Assembly: GCA_001002135.1 (NCBI GenBank)
Contig: LCLP01000002.1
Span: forward strand, 2,520-66,519
Direction: 5' to 3'
DNA from: Candidatus Pacebacteria bacterium GW2011_GWA1_46_10
GTDB taxonomy: Bacteria > Patescibacteriota > Microgenomatia > UBA1400 > PJMF01
Length of the DNA: 64,000 nt
The translations under genes and the position numbers were made by a program. The notes beneath the pieces were generated by a model. The model was not told where the DNA came from. It did no database searches and was given only the letters and a program-made list of their open reading frames with translations. Below are positions 4,395-49,888 of the stretch, piece after piece. The stretch's first letter is position 1, and the number at the start of each line of letters is the position of its first letter.

Positions 4395-4470
4395 GGCACG
4401 GTACCAGAGTGGTCTAATGGCGAGGTCTGCAAAACCTCCGTTCGTGGGTTCGAATCCCATCCGTGCCTCC
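4395..4470 (+). tRNA. tRNA-Cys (anticodon GCA)
   Basis: Acceptor ggcacgg/ccgtgcc, anticodon stem gaggt/acctc with loop ctgcaaa (GCA), T-arm gtggg-ttcgaat-cccat, discriminator U73 (the Cys identity element). CCA is encoded; its A is the A of the miaB ATG. Confidence 0.8.
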
Positions 4471-5625
4471 ATGAAGCAGAGTTACTTTATTAAAACCTTC
4501 GGTTGCCAATCAAATAAAAGTGATTCCGAGCGAATTGCCGGCGACTATGAAGCACGCGGGTATGTGGAAGCGGACAGCTGGAAAAATTGTGATGAACTAG
4601 TTATCAACACCTGCGCTATTCGTCAGCGAGCTGAGCACCGAGCTCGTGCCTTTATCCATAATGTTGTCCAACACTACCAGCTGGCCAAACAACCACGACC
4701 CAAAATTATCTTCACCGGCTGTATGCTCCATCACGGCAAAAACAAGATTATGGAGATGATTCCAGTCATCGATGAAATCTTGCCGGTCAATGAAGTGGGT
4801 TTTAACCAAGCCGCCATACGCCGAGATAAAAAACACGCTTGGGTGCCGATCTCGGCCGGCTGTAATTCATTTTGCACTTACTGTATCGTGCCCTACTCAC
4901 GAGGGAGAGAACAGTCCCGCAGTCTGGATGAAATCATGGCCGAGGTGAAAGATTTAGTCGATCAAGGCTACACCGAGATCACTCTTTTAGGCCAAAACGT
5001 TAATTCTTGGGGCTTGGAAAAAGTTGGCATTGGCCTGCGCAAACTCTTTATGAGCGGTAAACCAATCACCCGCGAGATGCTACCCTCCAACACTTCACAG
5101 TACTTCAAACCTAAAGGGACACCGCCTTTCGTCAAACTCCTGCGTAAAATCAGTCAGTTTGACCAACTCAAAACCATCCGCTTCATCAGCGCCAATCCGT
5201 GGGACTTCCACGATGAGCTGATCGACGAGATCATCAACAACCAAAAAATCGATCGCTACGTGCATTTGCCGATTCAATCGGGTAGCAACAGTGTCTTACA
5301 CCGGATGAACCGCGGCTACAAAAAAGTTGACTATTTACGCATCGCCAAGAAACTGAAGGCAGGCGATCCATCTATTGTGCTGGGGACCGATATTATTGTT
5401 GGCTTTCCTGGCGAAACTGAGGATGAGTTTCAAGAAACCGTGGATGTTGTGGAAAGCACCCAGTGGAAAGTCGGTTTTGTGGCCATGTACTCACCACGCC
5501 CCGGCACCGCCGCTGATCGGCTGTATGAGGATGATATCCCACACGTCATCAAAAAACGCCGCTGGGAGATTTTGGACGAAATCATTAATAAAAATAATCT
5601 GCACCGTCGACCAAAAGTCGTTTGA
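4471..5625 (+). CDS. miaB: tRNA methylthiotransferase, MiaB-like radical SAM
   Basis: N-terminal MTTase motif IKTFGCQSN. Radical-SAM cluster CNSFCTYC. Located immediately upstream of miaA. The 18 N-terminal codons of the track ORF overlap tRNA-Cys and are discarded. Confidence 0.8.
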   Translation: MKQSYFIKTFGCQSNKSDSERIAGDYEARGYVEADSWKNCDELVINTCAIRQRAEHRARAFIHNVVQHYQLAKQPRPKIIFTGCMLHHGKNKIMEMIPVIDEILPVNEVGFNQAAIRRDKKHAWVPISAGCNSFCTYCIVPYSRGREQSRSLDEIMAEVKDLVDQGYTEITLLGQNVNSWGLEKVGIGLRKLFMSGKPITREMLPSNTSQYFKPKGTPPFVKLLRKISQFDQLKTIRFISANPWDFHDELIDEIINNQKIDRYVHLPIQSGSNSVLHRMNRGYKKVDYLRIAKKLKAGDPSIVLGTDIIVGFPGETEDEFQETVDVVESTQWKVGFVAMYSPRPGTAADRLYEDDIPHVIKKRRWEILDEIINKNNLHRRPKVV

Positions 5626-5628
5626 GTA

Positions 5629-6585
5629 ATGAAAAAACCTTTAGTCTTTTCCGTCGTCGGCCTGACCGCCACCGGCAAAACTGCTTTCGCCCTCCAACTG
5701 GCCGAGCATTTGCTTGACCAAGGCAAACAAAAAGTAATTCTCCTTGCCGCCGATTCCAAACAAGTTTTCCAAGGCTTGGAAATTCTCTCCGGCGCTGATA
5801 TCCCCAGTGATTTTCAACCCGCCAAGCAAGCTGAGTATCTTTACCCCTATTTCGTCAACACTAACCAACCAATCGAACTGCATGGAGTGGCTTGCGTTTT
5901 CGGCGATGCCGATTGGTCGGTCGCTCACTTTCAACGACTGTTTGAAAACCTGTATGGTCACGCGGACGGGCAAACGGCAATTGTTGTCGTTGGCGGCACT
6001 GGACTCTATCACCAGCAGATTTTCTCCCCAGCCGAAACCACTGCTATCAAACCAGACCTTCAGTTGCGCCGAAAACTTGACTCGCTCCCACTCAAAGAAC
6101 TCCAACAACACCTACAAACTACTTGGCCGGCACGCTGGAAACAAATGAATAATTCCGATCGAAACAACCAGCGCCGTCTCATTCGAGCGATTGAAGTCTC
6201 TCTAGCAGAAAAACCAATACCACCAACCGTCGGTGTTAGACCAGTTGCTCAATTTGGTTTGCAGCTGTCAATGAAACTGGTTGAGACCAAGATCGCTAAG
6301 CGAGTTGACCAACGGCTCAAACAAGGCGTAATTCAAGAAGTTAGGCAGTTTGAAAAAAAATATCGCACCAATGCTATCCAAGCCAAGGCTACTCTTGGCT
6401 ACCAACTGATCCTGAAGTACCTCAGTAAACATCTCACCCTCGATCAACTCAAAGCAGCCTGGACTCTCGAGGAAATTCAGTACGCCAAGCGCCAGCAAAC
6501 CTGGTGGCAAAAGCGCGCCGGTATCGAGTGGCTCTCAGCCGACAAGATTGATTTTTCCACCTTAAAAAGCTATAATTTCTCCTGA
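5629..6585 (+). CDS. miaA: tRNA dimethylallyltransferase
   Basis: P-loop GLTATGKT at the N-terminus, IPT-family length and layout, adjacent to miaB. Confidence 0.85.
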   Translation: MKKPLVFSVVGLTATGKTAFALQLAEHLLDQGKQKVILLAADSKQVFQGLEILSGADIPSDFQPAKQAEYLYPYFVNTNQPIELHGVACVFGDADWSVAHFQRLFENLYGHADGQTAIVVVGGTGLYHQQIFSPAETTAIKPDLQLRRKLDSLPLKELQQHLQTTWPARWKQMNNSDRNNQRRLIRAIEVSLAEKPIPPTVGVRPVAQFGLQLSMKLVETKIAKRVDQRLKQGVIQEVRQFEKKYRTNAIQAKATLGYQLILKYLSKHLTLDQLKAAWTLEEIQYAKRQQTWWQKRAGIEWLSADKIDFSTLKSYNFS

Positions 6586-6586
6586 A

Positions 6587-6933
6587 ACGCACAACCGGGC
6601 AATGGCTTTACACTTTAATTTCTGACTCTATCGGAAAAAGAAGTTATAAAGAGGAAAGTCCGGACAGCAGAGTAGACGGTGCCCCGTGAAAGCGGGGGAT
6701 CCCCGATAAAATCGGGGAGCCAGTTAGAGTAACAGTGACGATGCGGGTGGCGCCGCGTGAAACGACCAAGCGACTGGGTGCCTAGGGTGGCGACAATCCT
6801 CCCGGCTGCAACGAGCGACCTTGACCTGAATGGACCTACTCCCTATATCTTGCTTAGACAGCAAGAGACGGTCATCAAGCCTCGGCTAAGATAAATCTTG
6901 CTTAAACAGAATCCGGCTTACGAGTTGTGCGTT
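6587..6933 (+). ncRNA. rnpB: RNase P RNA (bacterial-type)
   Basis: Universal P4 strands GAGGAAAGTCCGGAC (5') and ACAGAATCCGGCTTAC (3'). P1 pairing between cgcacaac (6588-6596) and gttgtgcg (6924-6931). No ORF in the region. Confidence 0.75.
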
Positions 6934-6974
6934 TCTTCGTTATACTGTGGAGAGTACAGAGTGTAAAAGGAAGC

Positions 6975-7688
6975 ATGAATCCACAATTGCAAGCCTCACT
7001 TGTTTCTTCTTGGAATTATCTTTTGAACACCATCCTCAACAGCCTCGCCCTGCTGCTCCCGAAAGTAGTCGGGGCATTGACCGCATTAGTTGTCGGTGTG
7101 ATCTTCGCCAAGCTCATCCGCAGCGCGATCTATAAAATCCTCCATGCCTTAAGCTTGTCTCGTTTTGTCAACAAAACCCCGCTGCAAGTCGCGCTCCAAC
7201 AAGATAACCTTGGTCGACGGATCGAGGAAAACATTGCCAATTTTGTTTATTGGTTAAGTGTTTTAGTGGTGATTTACATTATGGTGGCCATCCTGGGCCT
7301 TAGCTCTGCTACCGTGGTACTGGAAAAAATCCTCGGGTACATTCCCAACGTCATTTCCGCCATGTTTATCTTGCTGTTTGGGATCTTGGTGGCCGGCTGG
7401 GTTGAAAATCTGGTTAAAGGAGCAGTTAGAGCGATTGACCAAAGAGCCAGCCGCATGTTGGGTAAAATCTCCGGCTACTTTGTAGTGATCTTAACTTCTA
7501 TGACGGCTTTATCAGAACTGGGCATTGCCGAAGATTTTCTCACTATCATGTTTATCGGCTTGGTCACCACCCTCACCTTAGGCTTTGGTTTGGCGCTGGG
7601 TTTGGGCGGCAAAAGTTTAGTCGAACACATCCTAGCTGATTGGTACAAAAACTTTTCGGGTAAGCCTCAAACCCCGAAGCGAAAATAA
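6975..7688 (+). CDS. membrane protein with conserved-TM-helix repeats (MscS N-terminal-like)
   Basis: Repeated TM helices resembling the MscS-family N-terminal helix (LPKVVGALTALVVGVIFAKLIRSAI). Start moved to MNPQLQ because the track ORF begins inside rnpB. Confidence 0.45.
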   Translation: MNPQLQASLVSSWNYLLNTILNSLALLLPKVVGALTALVVGVIFAKLIRSAIYKILHALSLSRFVNKTPLQVALQQDNLGRRIEENIANFVYWLSVLVVIYIMVAILGLSSATVVLEKILGYIPNVISAMFILLFGILVAGWVENLVKGAVRAIDQRASRMLGKISGYFVVILTSMTALSELGIAEDFLTIMFIGLVTTLTLGFGLALGLGGKSLVEHILADWYKNFSGKPQTPKRK

Positions 7689-15476: not shown

Positions 15477-16838
15477 GTGAATGATCCACAACAAATCCTA
15501 AAACAATACTTCGGTTACGATACTTTTCGCCCACCGCAAGAATCAATTATTCAACATATTTTGGTGGGGGATCGCACACTCGCATTACTACCCACCGGGC
15601 AGGGCAAGTCGGTTTGTTACCAAATACCAGGACTGGTATCTCACGGCTTGACTATTGTGATTTCCCCCCTCATTGCGCTAATGAAAGACCAAGTTGATGC
15701 TCTTCATCACCGTGGGATCACCGCTCATTACGTCAACAGCACTCTGAGTAAAACAGAAATTGCCGCCAAATACGAAGACATTCGGCGCGGCCACTGTCGA
15801 TTCCTGTACGTGGCCCCCGAACGACTGCTGACCAAACCATTCTTAAAACTGATGCAAGCTCAATCACCCCAATTCGTCGCTGTCGACGAGGCCCACTGTT
15901 ACTCCACTTGGGGGCATGATTTCCGGCCGCATTACCGCGACATCCCGCGTTTTATCAGTAAGCTACCAACCGAACCAAAACTGGCACTCTTTACCGCCAC
16001 TGCCTCGAAAGCAGTAGTAGAGGATCTACAACAATCGTTTGGCGTTTCCACGAAACATACCTACCGTGGGAACTTTTTCCGCCATAATTTGTTTATCACC
16101 ACCCGCACCTTTGAACTGCGCTCACAGCGTTTTTTATATCTGGTTTACCTCTTGCGCCACGTTCATGCTGACCAAGTGGGTCTGATTTATGTGGCCACCC
16201 GAGAACAGGCCGAGATGTTGTATCAAGCGCTCAAACGACTCGATTTTGACCACCGGTTAGCCATTGACTACTATCATGCCGGCCGAACCAACCAAGAAAA
16301 AACCAAGATCCAAGAAAAATTTATCAATGACCAGCTGAAAATCGTCATTGCCACCAACGCTTTTGGCATGGGCATTGATAAGGACAATATCCGCTTTGTT
16401 ATTCACTGCCAAATGCCAGGTAGCTTGGAGAACTACGTTCAAGAAATCGGCCGAGCGGGCAGAGATGGTGAACTGAGTTGGTGTGAACTGTTATTTCATC
16501 CTTCGGATGTCCGGATTCATCAGCAACTTCAAGCAGGTAAAAAGGGTCAGCAGCGGGGACGGCGCTCACTACAGACCATGCTTGAATACCTAGAGAGTGA
16601 GCAGTGCCACCATCAGAAAATCCTAGCTTATTTCCAAGATCCGCAACGCTTCCCGCATGGCTGCCGCCGCTGCCAGCACTGTGCCCCATACTCCCAGCCA
16701 TTCCTTCACCAAATGCGTCTAGCCTTGCAAGATAAGCCAACTTTCCCGACCTTTATCGCCCAACAACAATATATACTGACTCAAAATCGAACACAAAATT
16801 GGTCCAAACTGATTGGCGTAGGCCTGGGAATGGTATAA
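15477..16838 (+). CDS. recQ: ATP-dependent DNA helicase, RecQ family
   Basis: Walker A PTGQGKS, DEAH box (DEAHCYSTWGHDFRP), RecQ zinc-binding cysteines in the C-terminal part. GTG start. Confidence 0.85.
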   Translation: MNDPQQILKQYFGYDTFRPPQESIIQHILVGDRTLALLPTGQGKSVCYQIPGLVSHGLTIVISPLIALMKDQVDALHHRGITAHYVNSTLSKTEIAAKYEDIRRGHCRFLYVAPERLLTKPFLKLMQAQSPQFVAVDEAHCYSTWGHDFRPHYRDIPRFISKLPTEPKLALFTATASKAVVEDLQQSFGVSTKHTYRGNFFRHNLFITTRTFELRSQRFLYLVYLLRHVHADQVGLIYVATREQAEMLYQALKRLDFDHRLAIDYYHAGRTNQEKTKIQEKFINDQLKIVIATNAFGMGIDKDNIRFVIHCQMPGSLENYVQEIGRAGRDGELSWCELLFHPSDVRIHQQLQAGKKGQQRGRRSLQTMLEYLESEQCHHQKILAYFQDPQRFPHGCRRCQHCAPYSQPFLHQMRLALQDKPTFPTFIAQQQYILTQNRTQNWSKLIGVGLGMV

Positions 16839-16847
16839 TACCAACCC

Positions 16848-17207
16848 ATGAGTGATCAAAAAATGACCTTGGTGGAGTTGGTAGAAAAATACCGCTCAAT
16901 TGCCGACTTTCTCAACACCCACTGGCCGCTGAAAGACAAACAACAGCAAACCTTTGCCCGCATCATGAAGTTGGTGGAAGAGCTCGGGGAATTATCCGAT
17001 GAAATTCTGACCAGCATGAATCTGGCGCGTGATTCCAAAATCGCCAAGTTTAGCCAGGAAAACATGCAGGATGAGTTCGCCGACGTCTTGGCTTCACTCA
17101 TTTTGCTGGCCATAGAACTGGACATCGATGTCGAGAAAGTGATGCGCAAAAAGATCACCTTTACCCGCGAGCGCTTTGGCATGGATTCCAAGCGCAGCAT
17201 GGTCTAA
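16848..17207 (+). CDS. MazG-like nucleotide pyrophosphohydrolase
   Basis: All-alpha NTP-PPase signature: EExxE (LVEELGELSDE) and later EFADVLASLILLA. Confidence 0.6.
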   Translation: MSDQKMTLVELVEKYRSIADFLNTHWPLKDKQQQTFARIMKLVEELGELSDEILTSMNLARDSKIAKFSQENMQDEFADVLASLILLAIELDIDVEKVMRKKITFTRERFGMDSKRSMV

Positions 17208-19024
17208 AGCCCCATGTGTTGATAGAGTTGCCCGTCTGAAAAACCTTTTTTGCGATAGTATTCTCTCGTGCCGATCGCCGAGATCACCGACAATCGCTTG
17301 AAACCCTGTTTCCTGGCCCGCTTCTTGGCTTCAGCCATCAACCTGGTACCAAGACCAAGGTGTTGGGCGTGTTTTTTAGCCTTAGCACCAATCTTGAGGG
17401 CCGGACCATAGACGTGGACTTCACGAATGATGGCGCTACCCTTGAGTTCGTCAATAAAGCCTGGTTGCTTAGGGAGGCTCAAGCGCAGGAAAGCGAGTAA
17501 CTTCTCACCCCTGGCGGTGGGCACCACGTATTGCAGAAACTGCTCTTCAGCTACGCTGGTCTGGTAGGTAACGGTTTTCAGCTTGATGTATTTCGGGTCA
17601 AATTTCTCCCCTCGAATTTCCCGGGCACGAATGTCATGCGAGTGCTGGCCAAGTTTCTCCAAGTGTGCTTCAGCAATCTGGCGGAAATTAGTTTTTTTGT
17701 TGCCTACCACAATATCAGTCGAGGGAATATCCCGAATCACTCGAGTGAGGCGGCAATAGGGCGAGGTAGCCAACAGTACGTGCGATAGAACGTCGAGCAA
17801 CTGCTGGTGGGTATACGGCTGCCATTTACCTGCCTGGTAATACTGCATTAACTCGGCGCTTTCGATCAGTGAACAGGGGTAAATCTTCAGTTCATCCGGG
17901 TGAAAATCAGGATCACTAAACAAGAGTTCGTAGTCCTTTTTATCGAGTGCTGGATCAGAACCGTAGAGATTGGCCATCCAGTGGGCGTGAATTTTAAAAC
18001 CGGCCTGACGCAGGAGCTTAAAGGCGTGCCGAGTGGCCGCTACATCATGGCCGCGGTGATTTTTCGCCAGGACCGAATCCTGCAGACTTTGCACCCCAAT
18101 TTGAGTCTTGGTACAGCCCAGTTTGCGCACGCGAATAACTTCCTCTTTGGAAATATTATCCGGCCGAGTCTCGATTACCAAACCAACGTTACGCACTTCG
18201 CCGGTTTCATTGATTTTTTGTTGAGCGGTCAACTCATCCCAAGTGGCGCTTTGGTATCTATCCAAACCAAGTTTTCGTTCCGGAGCTGTGTAAACTTCGG
18301 ACACCACTTGGTTATAGCGTTTGGTTAATTCTTCACCATGCACTTGCAATTTCTCGAAACGCTTAGCGTTTTCCTTGGGATCATCTGTTAAATACAATTG
18401 CTCTCGCGCCTCAAACTCGTGCTGTTTCTGGCGATAATACGAGCGAACTTTTGTCCGGTCGTCTCTGAAACCAAACTCATTCAAAGCGCGGAAACACTCT
18501 TTAATAAACCAGATTTGATAGCTTTCCGGGTAATATGACCAGGTGCCGCCGAGAATAATCAGTTCCACTTTATCGACGGGGTGACCCATCACAGAGAGGG
18601 CGTTGAGACGGTTGTACGTCTGCAAATATGGGTCAAAGTAGTTGCGCTCTGCCCGCTGGGCGCCCGGCTCATCACTCATGTAGGACTTGGGCATGCGGAT
18701 GTCATTGGGGCAGAAAATACACTTGCCAGGGCAGGGAAAAGGCTTAGTCAGCACCGTCACCGGCGCCACCCCGGAAATGGTACGGGTAGGCTTCATCATG
18801 ATTTTTTTGACCAAGGCTTCGTTGTAGGGTTTCAAGCCGTGGGTGCCGGCCAGTTGTTTGTAAGCTGTAATCAAGTCGGTTTTAGAAAGGAGAGTTTGAT
18901 TGGAAAGCGGTGAACGCTTAATCAACTTTTGCAACAACTGACCATCCACGTGTTTGGCTTGCTCCAGCGCTTTCCAAACAGTCAACACCTCTTTCAGATG
19001 GTCGGTATAATAAAACGGTTTCAT
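17204..19024 (-). CDS. elp3: Elp3-type tRNA uridine(34) carboxymethyl-synthase (radical SAM plus GNAT)
   Basis: Radical-SAM cluster CPGKCIFCPN (Cx3Cx2C). Central Elp3 domain. C-terminal GNAT acetyltransferase fold (HLGLGTRLMAEAKKRARKQGFKRLSV). Start placed at MKPFYY. Confidence 0.8.
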   Translation of the reverse strand: MKPFYYTDHLKEVLTVWKALEQAKHVDGQLLQKLIKRSPLSNQTLLSKTDLITAYKQLAGTHGLKPYNEALVKKIMMKPTRTISGVAPVTVLTKPFPCPGKCIFCPNDIRMPKSYMSDEPGAQRAERNYFDPYLQTYNRLNALSVMGHPVDKVELIILGGTWSYYPESYQIWFIKECFRALNEFGFRDDRTKVRSYYRQKQHEFEAREQLYLTDDPKENAKRFEKLQVHGEELTKRYNQVVSEVYTAPERKLGLDRYQSATWDELTAQQKINETGEVRNVGLVIETRPDNISKEEVIRVRKLGCTKTQIGVQSLQDSVLAKNHRGHDVAATRHAFKLLRQAGFKIHAHWMANLYGSDPALDKKDYELLFSDPDFHPDELKIYPCSLIESAELMQYYQAGKWQPYTHQQLLDVLSHVLLATSPYCRLTRVIRDIPSTDIVVGNKKTNFRQIAEAHLEKLGQHSHDIRAREIRGEKFDPKYIKLKTVTYQTSVAEEQFLQYVVPTARGEKLLAFLRLSLPKQPGFIDELKGSAIIREVHVYGPALKIGAKAKKHAQHLGLGTRLMAEAKKRARKQGFKRLSVISAIGTREYYRKKGFSDGQLYQHMGL

Positions 19025-19046
19025 ACTTTGAAGCCAGATTATAGCA
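19025..19046. promoter_or_regulatory. 22-bp divergent intergenic region with back-to-back -10 boxes for elp3 and the trm9-like gene
   Basis: On the minus strand, TATAAT sits 13 nt upstream of the elp3 ATG. The same bases on the plus strand (ATTATAG) lie 6 nt upstream of the methyltransferase ATG. Neither gene has a Shine-Dalgarno sequence. Confidence 0.4.
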
Positions 19047-19808
19047 ATGAAAGTCTCCACTATCCGTCAACTCAACGAATTCAACGCTAAGTTTTACCAA
19101 CTGACAGCGGAGGAATTCAGTAAAACTCGGGGTTTTTACTGGCAAGGGTGGAAAGAGTTACTGCCAATACTTCAACCGGTGGTCAAGGAAAAATCGCAGT
19201 TTAAAGTCCTGGACGTTGGCTGTGGCAACGGGCGTTTTGGGGAGTTTCTCTTTCGCCAGGTCGCCAAGAAAAAGCTCGTTTACCATGGTTTGGATAATAG
19301 CCAATCACTCTTGGCTACCGCGCAAAAAAAATTAGCGCCCCTCAAATTTGAAAAAGAATTTTTTACCGTTGATGTCGTTGAATCATTGCTCGATCAATCA
19401 TTAGAAAACAAACTACCACACAAAAAGTATCATTTGACCACGCTGTTTGGTGTCCTGCACCATATTCCCTCCACTAAACTGCGCCAAGAATTGATCAAAA
19501 CTCTTAGCAACTCCTTGACTTCAGGGGGACTGCTGGTGATGACTGCTTGGCAATTCCTCAATGACGAGCGCTTGGCCAAAAAGCAAATTCACCCCAGCAT
19601 CGTACAGATCGACCCTGAGGAACTGGAGTCAAACGACTTTATCCTTGATTGGCAAAGGGGCCTCACTGCGTACCGGTATTGTCATTTCACTGATGATCAA
19701 GAGATGGAGGAGTTAGTAAAAAACACAGACTTGAAATTTTTGAAACGTTACAGTGCCGATGGGAAAGCCGGCAATCTCAATGCTTACATTATCTTACAGA
19801 AGCCTTGA
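19047..19808 (+). CDS. Trm9/ALKBH8-type SAM-dependent tRNA methyltransferase (predicted cm5U to mcm5U)
   Basis: Motif I VLDVGCGNGRF matches Trm9 (VLDVGCGNGKY). Downstream VLHHIPSTKLRQ...SGGLLVMTAWQF parallels ALKBH8/Trm9 AVIHHFAT...RR...GGKALIYVWA. Divergent neighbour of elp3. Confidence 0.7.
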   Translation: MKVSTIRQLNEFNAKFYQLTAEEFSKTRGFYWQGWKELLPILQPVVKEKSQFKVLDVGCGNGRFGEFLFRQVAKKKLVYHGLDNSQSLLATAQKKLAPLKFEKEFFTVDVVESLLDQSLENKLPHKKYHLTTLFGVLHHIPSTKLRQELIKTLSNSLTSGGLLVMTAWQFLNDERLAKKQIHPSIVQIDPEELESNDFILDWQRGLTAYRYCHFTDDQEMEELVKNTDLKFLKRYSADGKAGNLNAYIILQKP

Positions 19809-19849
19809 AAGACACCCTGTTTCCAGATAAAATTGCGCCGTCCAACATT

Positions 19850-19920
19850 TGCCCGATCGTCTAATGGCAGGACAGCGGCCTTTGAAGCCGTGAATCTAGG
19901 TTCGAATCCTAGTCGGGCAT
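19850..19920 (+). tRNA. tRNA-Gln (anticodon TTG)
   Basis: Acceptor tgcccga/tcgggca, 3-bp D-stem gtc/gac, anticodon arm gcggc-ctttgaa-gccgt (TTG), T-arm ctagg-ttcgaat-cctag. Confidence 0.75.
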
Positions 19921-19923
19921 CAA

Positions 19924-20139
19924 ATGAAACTAGGAAAATATCAACATTCTAAAACCGGAAATTTTTACAAAGTTATTGCTGTCGTGAGGCACTCTGAAAC
20001 ACTTGAGGAGTTTGTATTCTACGAAGCCTTGTATAAAAATCCAGTAAGTAAATTTTGGGTAAGGCCTTTAAAAATGTTTTTAGAAAAGGTAGAAATAAAT
20101 GGGGAAAGGGTTCCGCGATTTAAGTATATTGAAATATAG
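19924..20139 (+). CDS. DUF1653-family small protein
   Basis: GKYQHSKTGNFYKVIAV...EEFVFYEALYKN...WVRPLKMFLEKVEINGERVPRF matches the DUF1653 pattern. Confidence 0.5.
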   Translation: MKLGKYQHSKTGNFYKVIAVVRHSETLEEFVFYEALYKNPVSKFWVRPLKMFLEKVEINGERVPRFKYIEI

Positions 20140-43497: not shown

Positions 43498-44427
43498 ATG
43501 AAGAAATTGATAGCTGCTTTTTTGGTGGGTCTGACTGCTTTTTTGCTGGCTACTTCCCTTAGTTTCGCTCAAACTGCTGATTTACTTGAGGAAATCTTTG
43601 ATGCCTCGCCTGGCGCTGCGGCCACCGAAGAGGGGAGCCTGGCTTCCGCGTCAGCCCAAGCCGAACAGCAACTAAAAGAGAAGAAAGATCAAGATATTAC
43701 CGATACCAGCGGTACCAAAAAGGGCAAACTGGCCACATTTCTTGATGAACACCCGATTGGGTCGCTCTCTTGGTACAATCCGCTTCAGCATGCCATTCGG
43801 GAAGCTGTGGGTAATGGCCTCCCTGCCAACATTATTGTCCTGCTGCTACTGTTCCCAATGATTACCTCATTGATTGCTTTCGCCCGACACGTCATTGGTT
43901 TGAAAGGTTTTGGCGTCTTTATTCCTGCTGTGTTGTCGGTGGCTTTTGCTTCTACTGGGATTCTTACCGGCGCAGTAGTTTTTATTATTGTTTTATTGGC
44001 CACCACGATCGCCAAGCTCTCGGTGAAACGGCTCCGTTTACCTCTTTTACCGAGAACTGCCATGTTGTTGTGGGTGGTGAGTCTACTGGTGGCACTCACC
44101 CTGATTGCTTCTTCATGGTTTGGAACAGCCTCACTGTTAACCCTCAATATTTTCCCCATCCTGATCGTGATGCTTATTACCGAAAACTTCATTAGTACTC
44201 AACTATTTAACAGTCAAAAAGAAGCTCTGAGTATTACTTTTGAAACACTACTAGTGGCTGTTTTGGGTGCTTTTATCATTAATATGGAGACCATCCAACA
44301 GTTTGTCCTGTTGTATCCTGAACTCAGTCTCATTGCCGTAGCGATTATCAACATTCTCGTTGGTCGATATACCGGACTCCGATTACTGGAGAAAACCCGT
44401 TTTCAGTCCATCATTGAAGAAGAGTGA
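43498..44427 (+). CDS. signal-peptide plus polytopic (about 7-TM) membrane protein, first gene of the ATP-grasp/QEGLA module
   Basis: Cleavable-looking signal peptide, an acidic roughly 85-aa extracytoplasmic segment, then about 7 TM helices. Stop at 44427 sits 8 nt before the RBS/ATG of the ATP-grasp gene. Confidence 0.45.
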   Translation: MKKLIAAFLVGLTAFLLATSLSFAQTADLLEEIFDASPGAAATEEGSLASASAQAEQQLKEKKDQDITDTSGTKKGKLATFLDEHPIGSLSWYNPLQHAIREAVGNGLPANIIVLLLLFPMITSLIAFARHVIGLKGFGVFIPAVLSVAFASTGILTGAVVFIIVLLATTIAKLSVKRLRLPLLPRTAMLLWVVSLLVALTLIASSWFGTASLLTLNIFPILIVMLITENFISTQLFNSQKEALSITFETLLVAVLGAFIINMETIQQFVLLYPELSLIAVAIINILVGRYTGLRLLEKTRFQSIIEEE

Positions 44428-44437
44428 GGAGTGTCAC

Positions 44438-45718
44438 ATGGTCTTGGAAAAAGACATTTTGGGAATGAACGCCCGCAACCAGCTCTTCGTTCCTCTCAAC
44501 CCGCCGCGAGCCGCGGCGATTTGTAAATCAAAATATGCGACCAAGCTCCTCCTGCAAAGCAAAAACATTCCCACTGCTGAGATTTACGGGGTGTTGGGTA
44601 CTCAGGAAGACATTGATGAATTTGATTGGCACAAACTGACCAAAGACTTTGTGATCAAGCCGACCAACGGCCATGCCGGCAAGGGAGTGATTGCTTTCCG
44701 TCATCAACACGCTGACAAAGAACATTGGACCGACGTGGTCGGTAAAACGTGGAGCCTGGATGACATTAAACTGCACTCGGCTGATATTTTGGCCGGCCAA
44801 TACAGCACCCATGGCTCCAATCACAACATCATCGTCGAAGAAAGGGTGCCTATTCATCCCAAACTGCTGAAATATACGTATAAAGGTACGCCAGATACTC
44901 GCGTGATTGTTTTCAATAGTGTGCCGGTGATGGCTATGCTCCGGCTGCCAACCGAAGAATCAGAAGGCCGTGCTAACGTCAGCCAAGGGGCGATTGCAGT
45001 TGGCATTGATATTGCCACCGGCATTACTACTCACGCCGTCGCTCACAAGAATCAACCAATTCAATTTCTGCCCAATACCAAACTAAAACTCAACGGCATC
45101 CAAATTCCATTCTGGCAACAAGTTTTAAAAATCGCTGTTGAAGCGGCTCGCGCGGCTGAACTGACTTTTACCGGAGTTGACCTGTTTGTCCACAAAGAAA
45201 AAGGTCCCATGGTAGTTGAGTTGAATGCCTATCCTGGCCTCTCGATCCAGATGGCTAATCGTGAGGGATTAAAACGCCGATTGGAAAGAGTCCAAGACCT
45301 TAATGTCCTGAATGCCGACCATGGTGTGAAAATCGGACAAGCGCTCTTTGCTGAACACTTTGCTACCAAAATCGAGGCCAAAGGGGAGGTGCCAATTCTA
45401 AATACTGAAGAAACTATCACTGTGTACGGTGACAATCGCCATAAAATTGAAGCCAAAGCGCTCATTAACACTGGTCGTTTCCGCACAGCTATTGCGAGCA
45501 GTCTGGCTAAAGAGTTAGCGCTGATTGAGGTTGATGACCTGCTGTGGTTTCAACAAGTTTCCGGTGAGGGGAAACGTCCCGTCATTGAACTGAAGTTTCG
45601 TCTTAAAGGAAAAACTGTCGAGACCTCCGCTGTCGTTTCCCGAAAACTAGACAGTGCCGCGCAAAAGATTGAAGTGGGGAGAAAGGACTTGTCGGGTTTT
45701 GTGATCCGACCAGCGTAA
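44438..45718 (+). CDS. RimK-like ATP-grasp ligase (alpha-L-glutamate-ligase-like family)
   Basis: ATP-grasp motifs FVIKPTNGHAGKGV, VEERVPIHP and VELNAYPGLSIQ. GAGGAG RBS 7 nt upstream of ATG 44438. Extra C-terminal roughly 120 aa. Confidence 0.7.
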   Translation: MVLEKDILGMNARNQLFVPLNPPRAAAICKSKYATKLLLQSKNIPTAEIYGVLGTQEDIDEFDWHKLTKDFVIKPTNGHAGKGVIAFRHQHADKEHWTDVVGKTWSLDDIKLHSADILAGQYSTHGSNHNIIVEERVPIHPKLLKYTYKGTPDTRVIVFNSVPVMAMLRLPTEESEGRANVSQGAIAVGIDIATGITTHAVAHKNQPIQFLPNTKLKLNGIQIPFWQQVLKIAVEAARAAELTFTGVDLFVHKEKGPMVVELNAYPGLSIQMANREGLKRRLERVQDLNVLNADHGVKIGQALFAEHFATKIEAKGEVPILNTEETITVYGDNRHKIEAKALINTGRFRTAIASSLAKELALIEVDDLLWFQQVSGEGKRPVIELKFRLKGKTVETSAVVSRKLDSAAQKIEVGRKDLSGFVIRPA

Positions 45719-45721
45719 ATC

Positions 45722-46687
45722 ATGGGACTAGTAGATGACTTAAATCCCACCAACTATCAAGAGGAAAAACAGCGTTTCCTCAACAATCCCACTTTTAACC
45801 CTCAGTTTCACTACAAACGAGAGTTTTCTCAAGAAGAACTGTCCCGCCACGGCTTTCCGGCTGATGGCTACCAACAACTGGCGCAACGCATCATTGACGC
45901 CACCTTTCAACAGTTCACTCCCCATGAGCTCCAAGCCCAAAGAGGTCGGTTGCTGACCCAAGATAAAGTGACAGCGGCCATCCAGCAGTTCCTTCAAGCC
46001 CACAGCTTAGAAAACCGTTTTCCGATTGTGTGGTCAGACAAGTTTGTCAGCCGGGCCTCAATCGACGCCCACAACACTATTCGTCTGCGCCTCCCTTGCA
46101 GTGTGTACGAAGAAGATCTGAGTGGTTTGATTTACCACGAAATCGGCACACACGTCTTGCGACGGGTAAACTACGAACAACAGCCATGGTACAAAAAGAA
46201 ACATCAGTTTGGTTTTTCTCCACACCTGAAAACAGAAGAGGGGATGGCCGTCCTACACTCGCTGTTTCCCAAAACCGAAGTCTTTGCCTATCGTCCAGCT
46301 ATCTATCACTTGGCTACGTACAAAGCTCAAGAAGGCTCATTTCTGGATGTGTGGCAATTCCTACTGCAATACTATGCCGAAGATCAGGAAACGGCTTTTA
46401 CGATCGCGGTCAAAAAAAAGCGCGGGCTGACCGATACCAGTCAGCCGGGTGGCTTTACCAAAGATCTAGTGTACTTTGAGGGCTTTGTGGATATCACTCG
46501 TTTCATGATTGCCAATCATTTTCCGCTCAAAGCACTTTACTTAGGCAAACTTTCCTGGCGAGACGTGGACCGCGCGCAGAAACTCAACCCAGATTACGAG
46601 CCGTTGCTGCCAATTTTTTACACCCGCGATCCAGCGGCGTACGAGCGGCGGGTCCGAGAGATCGCCAAAACAAACTTCCTCATTTAG
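45722..46687 (+). CDS. DUF1704 / QEGLA-motif protein with an HExxH zincin-like motif
   Basis: HEIGTH (HExxH) and TEEGMAV (QEGLA-like). Lies 3 nt downstream of the ATP-grasp stop. Confidence 0.6.
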   Translation: MGLVDDLNPTNYQEEKQRFLNNPTFNPQFHYKREFSQEELSRHGFPADGYQQLAQRIIDATFQQFTPHELQAQRGRLLTQDKVTAAIQQFLQAHSLENRFPIVWSDKFVSRASIDAHNTIRLRLPCSVYEEDLSGLIYHEIGTHVLRRVNYEQQPWYKKKHQFGFSPHLKTEEGMAVLHSLFPKTEVFAYRPAIYHLATYKAQEGSFLDVWQFLLQYYAEDQETAFTIAVKKKRGLTDTSQPGGFTKDLVYFEGFVDITRFMIANHFPLKALYLGKLSWRDVDRAQKLNPDYEPLLPIFYTRDPAAYERRVREIAKTNFLI

Positions 46688-46739: not shown

Positions 46740-47816
46740 ATGAAAAGAATTGTGCTTGGACTATCTGGCGGAGTGGACTCCGCGGTCTCAGCTGTCTTAC
46801 TCAAAAAGCAAGGCTATCAAGTTGACGCTGTCTATCTTGAGTGCTGGCATGAACCGGGCTGTCGGGCTGAAGGGGATCGGCAGGACGCGCTCCAGGTCGC
46901 TCTCCAACTTGACTTGCCGTTTCAAGTGTTGAACTTCAAAAAACCCTACAGAGAAAAAGTGATGCAGTATTTCCTGGACGAATATCAAGCCGGTAGAACG
47001 CCCAACCCCGATGTGATGTGCAATAAGATCATCAAATTTGGACTCTTTTACGATTGGGCGATGAAACAGGGGTATGACGCCATCGCCACCGGCCACTATG
47101 CCAAAGCCGATGGCCAGTTTTTATACGTACCCAAAGACAAAATCAAAGATCAAACCTATTTCTTGTACCAAATTAGGCAAGAGCAATTGGCGCACGTTGT
47201 TTTCCCCTTGGCCGAGCTGACCAAACAAGCGGTTCGTCAACTCGCTCATCAAGCCAAGCTGCCGGTGGCCGACAAAAAAGATTCCGTCGGCATTTGTTTT
47301 GTGGGAGACATTAATGTTCCCAAGTTTTTGGCAGAAAATCTTGGCACCAAGCCAGGCAAGATCGTTGACGAGCATGGGAACATCCTTGGCCAACATCGCG
47401 GGTTGTGGTTCCACACCGTCGGCCAGCGCCATGGCTTTAACTACGATAAGAAAAAATACGCCCAACTCAACCCCATACTACACAAAGACGAATTGCCGGC
47501 TATGTATGTGATTGACAAAAACATCAAAGCCAACGAATTGGTCATCGGTCCCAAACAGGCCACGCGAGTGAAAACGCTTCACGTCTCCAATCTTCACTTG
47601 CTTGGTCTCACCCAAGCTGAGTTGTTCAAGCGAACGGACCTGCGGGTGCGTATCCGCCACACTGGCCAACTGACTGACTGTGAGATTAAGAAAATGGGTA
47701 ATAGGTATTCAGTCAAACTTAAACAACTAGTTGAAGGCGTTGCGTCGGGTCAATCTGCTGTGTTTTATACCTATGAAAAAGCAGGCAGATGCTTGGGGGG
47801 AGCAACCATAAATTAA
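46740..47816 (+). CDS. mnmA: tRNA-specific 2-thiouridylase
   Basis: PP-loop LSGGVDSAV, NPDVMCN, catalytic cysteines. TATAAT sits 9 nt upstream of the ATG. Confidence 0.85.
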   Translation: MKRIVLGLSGGVDSAVSAVLLKKQGYQVDAVYLECWHEPGCRAEGDRQDALQVALQLDLPFQVLNFKKPYREKVMQYFLDEYQAGRTPNPDVMCNKIIKFGLFYDWAMKQGYDAIATGHYAKADGQFLYVPKDKIKDQTYFLYQIRQEQLAHVVFPLAELTKQAVRQLAHQAKLPVADKKDSVGICFVGDINVPKFLAENLGTKPGKIVDEHGNILGQHRGLWFHTVGQRHGFNYDKKKYAQLNPILHKDELPAMYVIDKNIKANELVIGPKQATRVKTLHVSNLHLLGLTQAELFKRTDLRVRIRHTGQLTDCEIKKMGNRYSVKLKQLVEGVASGQSAVFYTYEKAGRCLGGATIN

Positions 47817-48096: not shown

Positions 48097-48384
48097 ACCT
48101 CCACTTCACAATTCTCGGTTCAAAAACTGAGAATTCTCGGCATTCGCAGATAAGGACTAGCGCCTTTCGCAGGGGCTCATCCTTTTTTCTGGTGAAGCGC
48201 ACTTTAACAAGTAAAGACTCAACAGCACCATCATGATTTCTGAAATAAACATGGTGGTGGAAATGCAAACAATTTGATGGATTTTATTTTGTGTAAAATC
48301 CGTTAATTCCAAATTGATAATTTGAATTGAACTTATTCAGTAAAATGAATGAGAAGGATTCAAACCTCAATAAGTTAAACTTTT

Positions 48385-49888
<1,504 letters not shown>

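Follow-up and report, generated by a model that had tools for sequence, protein, structure and literature searches.

Wobble-uridine modification and the elp3/methyltransferase pair

Wobble-uridine chemistry derived from 5-carboxymethyluridine (cm5U) is regarded as archaeal and eukaryotic in the accessible literature. In Sulfolobus (S. solfataricus) the Elp3 and Trm9 genes cluster, and Haloferax Trm9-Trm112 is described as functionally orthologous to the eukaryotic enzyme, with Trm9 as a validated partner of Trm112 (PMC6144793). According to a 2020 review, bacterial Elp3 is confined to Dehalococcoides, with no direct evidence of xcm5U there (PMC7663514); a 2026 paper places Elp3 in 'numerous bacteria'. 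A 2017 review of Trm112 reports no detectable bacterial homologues for the Trm112-dependent methyltransferases, Trm9 included (PMC5372719). The subject here is a divergent gene pair, elp3 and a trm9-like methyltransferase gene, from a 64,000-nucleotide stretch of Candidatus Pacebacteria bacterium GW2011_GWA1_46_10 (contig LCLP01000002.1; the whole stretch is hereafter the window). The host is a member of Patescibacteria (candidate phyla radiation, CPR); the accessible literature yielded nothing relevant on Elp3, MnmG or the modification of wobble bases in this group. The pair is probably a minimal bacterial Elongator/Trm9 pathway for the wobble uridine (U34), in which Elp3 would produce cm5U34, the methyltransferase would convert it to 5-methoxycarbonylmethyluridine (mcm5U34), and MnmA would add the 2-thio group (s2). 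Both the pathway and bacterial Elp3 are known. Apart from automated labels, a bacterial Trm9 family genetically coupled to Elp3, apparently without Trm112, and combined with MnmA appears to be undescribed.

The elp3 gene (17204..19024, minus strand) encodes a 606-aa stand-alone Elp3 with radical S-adenosylmethionine (radical-SAM) and GNAT/KAT domains, identified by TIGR01211 and by matches in the Protein Data Bank (PDB). The methyltransferase gene (19047..19808, plus strand) encodes a 253-aa class I SAM methyltransferase, predicted from profile and residue comparison to be a tRNA (cm5U34) carboxyl O-methyltransferase. In the list of open reading frames (ORFs) the latter starts with ATG and elp3 is given a GTG start (17204..19060, minus strand, 618 aa); public gene calls on identical DNA begin elp3 at an internal ATG (606 aa, window position 19024). 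If this internal ATG is used, exactly 22 bp (19025..19046) separate the two divergent start codons. The first-pass annotation of the window had given the same distance, and sequence and public gene calls agree on it. With a spacer of 22 bp, the promoter of either gene must fall within the 5' coding region of its partner, and a promoter-like site for the methyltransferase gene (TCAACA-18-TATAAT, a consensus match; 18982..19011, plus strand) is present within the first codons of elp3. The two genes may be co-regulated through their common 22-bp control region. Identical proteins are deposited at NCBI as KKU18062.1 and KKU18063.1 (Candidatus Pacebacteria bacterium GW2011_GWB1_47_8 and GWA1_46_10), under the product names 'Histone acetyltransferase, ELP3 family' for Elp3 and 'Methyltransferase type 12' for the methyltransferase.

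Identity and architecture of Elp3

The product of elp3, with its radical-SAM and GNAT domains, is a genuine Elp3. It scores 461.3 bits against the curated model TIGR01211 (cut-off 350), which covers residues 67-601, and its best solved relatives in the PDB are the Elp3 proteins of M. infernus (MinElp3, 1.7e-97) and Dehalococcoides mccartyi (DmcElp3, 1.5e-90). Mammalian and yeast Elp3 structures match at about 1e-75 to 1e-79. The radical-SAM triad C98-x3-C102-x2-C105 is found in the segment FPCPGKCIFCP, and the GNAT matches are located at the C-terminus. The three cysteines align with C90, C95 and C98 of MinElp3 and are invariant in 42/42 relatives, in all of which K152, K344, H537 and Y589 are conserved as well. 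In MinElp3, mutagenesis showed that K150, K266, Q461 and Y517 are required for acetyl-CoA binding and hydrolysis (PMC6367351). K150, K266 and Y517 correspond in the alignment to K152, K344 and Y589 of the window protein; the position of Q461 is occupied by Glu535, a residue type shared with DmcElp3 (E386).

The predicted fold agrees with this assignment. An AlphaFold2 (AF2) model of the protein, with a mean predicted local distance difference test score (pLDDT) of 81.7, matched 11 Elp3 chains (E 1e-34 to 1e-29, template modelling (TM) scores 0.84-0.90), and archaeal, bacterial, yeast and human Elp3 structures all superpose on it. The next-best structural match, HemN, reached 1e-5, about 25 orders of magnitude behind the Elp3 chains. 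The first-pass call of an Elp3 with intact radical-SAM cysteines is thus borne out by TIGR01211, the PDB matches, the 42/42 conservation and the fold.

The window protein is a long form of Elp3 that differs in three features from the prokaryotic Elp3 proteins known to date. It has an N-terminal extension of ~75 aa, which the AF2 model predicts as an ordered helical region. A second addition, an insertion of ~76-80 aa (residues ~185-264), is also helical and stands where MinElp3 has 4 residues. Insertion residues such as Y237, N238 and W262 are conserved within the long-form clade. The Cys3 zinc motif, which has been called strictly conserved in prokaryotic Elp3 (PMC6367351), is absent: S462, D464 and A467 stand at the cysteine positions, and S, D and A also predominate there across the long-form family. 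Judged from the alignment, the missing zinc motif sets the long-form clade apart from the prokaryotic Elp3 proteins described so far. The motif is not family-defining, because eukaryotic Elp3 also lacks Cys3.

Two side observations concern Elp3 records. One metagenomic elp3 (L130, 4001-5824, plus strand), 99.8% identical to L124, has TAG in place of GAG at codon 236, within the variable insertion; this is either a nonsense variant or a sequencing error. The NCBIfam product name of TIGR01211, 'tRNA uridine(34) 5-carboxymethylaminomethyl modification ... Elp3', has spread to many bacterial records. Unlike that name, the Elp3 literature gives the product as cm5U; the 5-carboxymethylaminomethyl (cmnm5) group is the product of MnmE/MnmG.

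The methyltransferase as a probable bacterial Trm9

Pfam and NCBIfam recognise the methyltransferase, METHYLTRANSFERASE, only as a class I SAM methyltransferase, and all specific models score far below their cut-offs (UbiG TIGR01983: 36.6, cut-off 103; UbiE NF001244: 29.5, cut-off 216). Its AF2 model has a pLDDT of 94.4, and structure searches with the model do not discriminate among class I methyltransferases. Such results, with UbiG as the best of the curated matches and an NCBI product name that is equally general, would fit a generic class I enzyme acting on a small molecule or another substrate (UbiG/UbiE-like, or an rRNA or protein methylase), whose position next to elp3 would be meaningless.

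More direct comparisons favour Trm9. A profile of 45 homologues (alignment A1) was run against 177,635 PDB sequences and returned Yarrowia Trm9 first (5cm2_Z, 1.8e-8), followed by the next match at 1.5e-7. Yarrowia Trm9 was then compared with E. coli UbiG, UbiE, CmoA, CmoB and CmoM as controls. In hmmsearch with the family hidden Markov model (HMM), Trm9 obtained 46 bits, against 24.9 for UbiG, 2.4 for UbiE, 21.7 for CmoA, 12.7 for CmoB and 15.3 for CmoM. The hhalign scores were 107 for Trm9 and 78, 54, 72.5, 61 and 60 for the same controls in the same order. The methyltransferase therefore appears nearer to Trm9 than to the other class I families, by a moderate margin. By HMM and profile-profile scores it does not cluster with UbiE-type enzymes, the outcome that would have spoken against the Trm9-type call made in the first-pass annotation. 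Independently, JGI annotation labels many family members 'tRNA (uracil-5-)-methyltransferase TRM9'.

The catalytic residues point the same way. In yeast Trm9, alanine at R29, D72, H116, W145, W168, R241, Y243 or N271 abolishes function in vivo (PMC4678810). Seven of these eight essential residues have counterparts that are invariant in 45/45 family members: R28 (for R29), D83 (D72), H139 (H116), W168 (W145), W202 (W168), R210 (R241) and N245 (N271). The counterpart of Trm9 H115, H138, is likewise invariant in 45/45, and that of the proposed residue Y18, Y17, is kept in 44/45. In the published model these Trm9 residues line the cm5U pocket, beyond the generic Rossmann core (PMC4678810). As for the motifs listed in the first-pass annotation, the Cx3Cx2C cluster of Elp3 and, in the methyltransferase, VLDVGCGNGRF (residues 54-64), HH (138-139) and GG (160-161) are present; the aromatic motif is TAWQF, with W168, and not 'WA', a trivial slip.

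The protein is best read as a bacterial Trm9, on the strength of the profile scores and the retained catalytic residues. A generic methyltransferase is very improbable and has been largely refuted: Trm9 outscores all five controls in both tests, pocket residues specific to Trm9 and outside the Rossmann core are invariant, and the adjacency to elp3 persists across phyla and a twofold range of G+C content while the other neighbours all change (see below).

A different objection is that the pair targets something besides tRNA U34, or that Elp3 works outside tRNA modification, for instance in protein acetylation, with the methyltransferase acting on the same target. Elp3 has long been annotated as a histone acetyltransferase and is still so named at NCBI, and the additional N-terminal helical domain and ~78-aa insertion of the long form have no assigned function. 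Against this, archaeal, bacterial and eukaryotic Elp3 hydrolyse acetyl-CoA solely upon a tRNA trigger (PMC6367351), and the residues N271, H115 and W145, which read the uridine ring in the Trm9 model, have invariant counterparts in the family (PMC4678810). A tRNA-Gln(UUG) gene also lies 42 bp downstream. A target other than tRNA is hence highly unlikely.

With regard to Trm112, the beta3-beta4 loop of the methyltransferase is 8 residues longer than in Trm9 and predicted to be helical; in Trm9 this loop contacts Trm112. No credible Trm112 was detected in the window and 1.5 Mb of related loci by tblastn with E. coli YcaR and a scan for the Cys-knuckle/GIP motif, a search of low sensitivity for a 60-aa protein. 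The first-pass annotation had noted the lack of an obvious Trm112 partner and of other Elongator subunits, and indeed none were seen near the pair. The methyltransferase would presumably be active without Trm112.

Conservation of the divergent pairing

One genome per GTDB species was scanned with the A1 profile. At least 379 species-representative genomes contain a relative of the methyltransferase, and the family comprises ~1,787 clusters at 50% identity (E <= 1e-30), so that the earlier description 'rare in bacteria' was too strong. Among the best 80 genome loci, Elp3 is found within 10 kb in 51, and in 50 of these 51 the orientation is the same divergent one, with most gaps below 150 bp; in 8 of the 80 the upstream sequence was too short to judge. 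A reverse scan of metagenomes with Elp3 yielded 80 loci, and those with 800 nt or more upstream, 74 in all, were counted. The methyltransferase is divergently adjacent in 67 of the 74, with a typical gap of ~40 bp. Overall, the spacer in relatives mostly measures 20-110 bp.

The pair-bearing loci span 31-72% G+C, and their record titles include Patescibacteria, Anaerolineae and other Chloroflexota, Myxococcales, 'Deltaproteobacteria', Spirochaetaceae, WWE3 and TM6. Clustering of neighbouring ORFs showed that beyond the Patescibacteria-type loci the pair alone is conserved. Conservation of two genes while all other neighbours differ is a classical signature of functional coupling, and the adjacency of Elp3 and the methyltransferase is not due to chance. 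The divergent pairing that was first noted in the window is thus present in several phyla. Fusions of the methyltransferase with Elp3 or Trm112 were not found among the best 150 of the 1,787 clusters, all of which are stand-alone proteins of 235-303 aa. No phage-borne copies of the pair genes were found.

A third conserved gene beside the pair was sought, and only two candidates emerged, both limited to Patescibacteria-type loci. The first, convergent with elp3 and sharing 4 nt with its 3' end, encodes a MazG-like nucleoside triphosphate (NTP) pyrophosphohydrolase (16848-17207, plus strand); a homologue is found beside elp3 in 50 of 115 pair-bearing loci, all of Patescibacteria-type synteny. 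The second, a RecQ-like helicase gene (15477-16838), is conserved similarly. Since both recur only in Patescibacteria-type loci, they look like inherited synteny and not like parts of the system, and they were rejected as such.

Some records of metagenome-assembled genomes (MAGs) titled 'uncultured Pseudomonadales', 'Gammaproteobacteria' and 'Limisphaerales' have a G+C content of 0.33-0.44 and show the synteny of Leu, Pro and Gln tRNA genes with MazG and RecQ. Given the shared Patescibacteria-type synteny and low G+C, the taxonomic labels of these records are probably wrong.

The pair in Dehalococcoides mccartyi

A counterpart of the pair exists in D. mccartyi, the source of DmcElp3. In CP019867.1 a 224-aa methyltransferase gene lies 43 bp upstream of the DmcElp3 gene in divergent orientation (methyltransferase 5283-5957, minus strand; elp3 6001-7380, plus strand; numbering of the locus sequence). 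Its hhalign score is 79.6 with Trm9, compared with 28-42 for the E. coli controls. The protein contains the motifs HH, TVW, LVPW and RYYRLY, has no beta3-beta4 insertion, and represents a separate, more canonical Trm9-like subfamily. The pairing of Elp3 and Trm9 is therefore a general bacterial feature and not a peculiarity of the window genome. No mention of the methyltransferase neighbour was found in the accessible literature, with a caveat that the original Dehalococcoides Elp3 papers may mention it. A gene for QueH, which takes part in another wobble-base modification, is situated ~2.3 kb from the D. mccartyi pair.

Proposed pathway and its alternatives

The basis for the proposed pathway is that both proteins belong to the respective families and keep the catalytic residues, and that their genes are divergently adjacent even in distant bacteria. 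Stand-alone Elp3 would cleave SAM on a [4Fe-4S] cluster bound by C98, C102 and C105, its GNAT domain would supply acetate from acetyl-CoA, and a carboxymethyl group would be placed on C5 of U34 to give cm5U34. The adjacent Trm9 orthologue would then methyl-esterify the carboxylate in a SAM-dependent reaction, giving mcm5U34. MnmA, encoded 27 kb away, would introduce s2 on U34 of Glu, Gln and Lys tRNAs and so produce 5-methoxycarbonylmethyl-2-thiouridine (mcm5s2U34). The outcome would be a hybrid route, with archaeal/eukaryotic chemistry at C5 and bacterial chemistry at C2. The tRNA substrates and nucleoside products are predicted ones, and Elp3 would presumably be active without Elp1/2/4/5/6.

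The window provides the further elements of such a route. The mnmA gene (46740..47816, plus strand) encodes a bacterial-type tRNA 2-thiouridine(34) synthase (NF001138, 380.5 bits, cut-off 284; Pfam tRNA_Me_trans). It is the predicted source of s2 in mcm5s2U, and would be linked to the pair functionally, not by physical clustering. Of the 8 tRNA genes in the window, tRNA-Gln(UUG) (19850..19921, plus strand; ARAGORN, Rfam 62.8 bits) begins 42 bp past the methyltransferase stop codon and has its own promoter-like site at 19805-19833 (promoter scan). It has U34 and belongs to a class of tRNAs with mcm5s2U in eukaryotes, and is therefore predicted to be a substrate. Most Patescibacteria-type loci have the same gene downstream of the pair, near the methyltransferase gene in five of them (L010, L011, L013, L022 and L069) and 3-9 kb away elsewhere; in a record titled TM6 (CP011212.1) it is ~200 bp downstream of the pair. 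In Patescibacteria-type loci the tRNA genes Leu-UAA, Pro-UGG and Gly-UCC, again all with U34, also appear repeatedly within 10 kb of the pair. This recurrence of U34 tRNA genes may reflect either inherited synteny or a link in function.

Several observations weigh against the proposed pathway. According to the 2020 review, xcm5U was never demonstrated in Elp3-bearing bacteria (PMC7663514). Curated Pfam and NCBIfam models name the methyltransferase no further than 'class I methyltransferase', and one essential Trm9 residue, Y243, is replaced by C212 (Cys in 44/45 family members). Eukaryotic and archaeal Trm9 require Trm112, which the low-sensitivity search of the window and related loci described above did not find. 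In addition, Elp3 is missing within 10 kb from 21 of the best 80 genome loci, all with Chloroflexota-type titles and each covered over 3 kb or more upstream and 3.3 kb or more downstream, and 7 of the 74 metagenomic Elp3 loci have no methyltransferase within 4 kb. The adjacency is therefore not universal.

The relation of the pair to the usual bacterial pathway was considered next to these points. Searches by tblastn with the E. coli proteins gave no match to MnmE or MnmG in the window and related loci (1.52 Mb + 0.65 Mb); this is weak evidence of absence, because 8-20 kb per genome was covered. It is a serious possibility that the pair is active and supplements MnmE/MnmG, acting on a subset of U34 tRNAs, for example family-box tRNAs that carry uridine 5-oxyacetic acid (cmo5U) or its methyl ester (mcmo5U) in other bacteria, or under certain conditions. 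MnmE/MnmG were looked for only in the window and ~2.1 Mb of flanks, and large-genome hosts of Chloroflexota and Myxococcota type seem unlikely to have dropped a near-universal pathway. Eukaryotic Elongator modifies family-box tRNAs too (PMC6367351), and the Leu-UAA, Pro-UGG, Gly-UCC and Gln-UUG genes recurring near the pair in Patescibacteria-type loci all encode tRNAs with U34. On the other side, two redundant C5 pathways on the same tRNAs would presumably be unusual.

Full replacement is a more tentative proposal, possible if somewhat doubtful. In Patescibacteria, and perhaps in other pair-bearing lineages, Elp3/Trm9 would have taken over entirely from MnmE/MnmG, and split boxes would be decoded with mcm5s2U made by Elp3, a Trm112-free Trm9 and MnmA. 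The lengthened beta3-beta4 element would then cover the Trm9 surface that Trm112 shields in eukaryotes. If this were true, the pair and mnmA would be the most compact genetic module known for mcm5(s2)U synthesis and contain the first bacterial Trm9.

The Elongator/Trm9-type pathway proposed above is of wider interest. In hundreds of species of bacteria, the model D. mccartyi among them, a Trm9-type enzyme whose active site is conserved is genetically tied to Elp3. If the pathway operates, mcm5U and mcm5s2U exist in bacteria and Trm9 is able to evolve independence from Trm112. It would also supply a compact two-gene cassette for eukaryote-type wobble modification in E. coli, of use in decoding engineering and in work on the mechanism of Elp3, an enzyme that the six-subunit complex makes difficult to study. 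A concrete trait would be added to the unusual translation apparatus of the CPR.

Other genes of the window

The first-pass annotation had listed mnmA, miaA and miaB in the window. Of these, mnmA exceeds the cut-off of its model; the other two are more safely called MiaA-like and MiaB-type, since their equivalog models remain below cut-off. The MiaB-type methylthiotransferase gene (4417-5625) passes TIGR00089 and reaches 329 with the miaB equivalog (cut-off 355). The MiaA-like gene (5629-6585) has Pfam IPPT matches and scores 112 with TIGR00174 (cut-off 148.65).

A complete, lone 16S rRNA gene (48382-49887, plus strand) is located between mnmA and clpB, and there is no 23S or 5S rRNA gene in the window. 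A tRNA-Ile(GAU) gene lies 3.3 kb beyond the 16S rRNA gene, past clpB. The rRNA genes thus seem not to be linked in one operon. Just upstream of mnmA is a three-gene cluster (43498-46687, plus strand) for a 7TM-transglutaminase-like protein (PF14402), an ATP-grasp protein (PF14397) and a MATCAP/DUF1704 metallopeptidase (PF08014), which looks like a cassette for peptide ligation and modification. Between tRNA-Gln and a ceramidase-like gene there is a 71-aa DUF1653 ORF (19924-20139, plus strand). It is annotated in assemblies L002, L003 and L006 of the species and not in L001, L004 and L005.

Comparison with known systems

Among bacterial systems, the MnmE/MnmG(/MnmC) pathway to cmnm5U and 5-methylaminomethyluridine (mnm5U) shares with the pair its target, C5 of U34, and the tRNA class, and MnmA is common to both. 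The enzymes are unrelated (a GTPase and an FAD/folate enzyme) and the side chain is different. In the CmoA/CmoB/CmoM system of Proteobacteria, CmoM (cmo5U to mcmo5U) is also a class I methyltransferase that esterifies a wobble-uridine carboxylate. It is a much weaker match to the window family than Trm9 (15 bits and hhalign 60, versus 46 bits and 107), and the cmo5U side chain is ether-linked and derived from carboxy-SAM, not from a radical-SAM/acetyl-CoA enzyme.

Archaeal Elp3 (M. infernus, M. jannaschii) is stand-alone like the window protein, and MinElp3 is its closest solved relative. In archaeal Elp3 the Cys3 zinc motif is present and the N-terminus is basic and flexible; window Elp3 has no zinc cysteines, a predicted ordered helical N-terminus and the insertion of ~78 aa. 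Archaeal Trm9 (Haloferax volcanii) is a Trm112 partner; the host of the window pair is a bacterium. DmcElp3 (PDB 5L7J, 5L7L, 6IA6) resembles window Elp3 in being bacterial and stand-alone, in its Cx3Cx2C spacing, in the Glu at the position of MinElp3 Q461, and in its divergent Trm9-like methyltransferase partner. It differs in being a short form (459 aa), with no N-terminal extension or insertion and with the zinc cysteines retained.

The eukaryotic pathway differs from the pair in several respects. Neither Elp1/2/4/5/6 nor Kti proteins nor Trm112 were seen near the window pair, its thiolation is predicted to depend on MnmA and not on Ncs6/Urm1, and its two genes are adjacent and divergent. 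Unlike Trm9, the window methyltransferase has Cys at the position of Y243 and a longer beta3-beta4 loop, and the AlkB and RRM domains of ALKBH8 are missing. The core is nevertheless common. Eukaryotic Elongator (Elp1-6) with Trm9-Trm112 (ALKBH8-TRMT112) uses the same two catalytic folds in the same predicted order, cm5U to mcm5U. Eukaryotic Elp3 is also without the Cys3 zinc motif, and the two systems share the Fe-S cysteines and KAT residues of Elp3 as well as the Trm9 residues R29, D72, H115, H116, W145, W168, R241 and N271.

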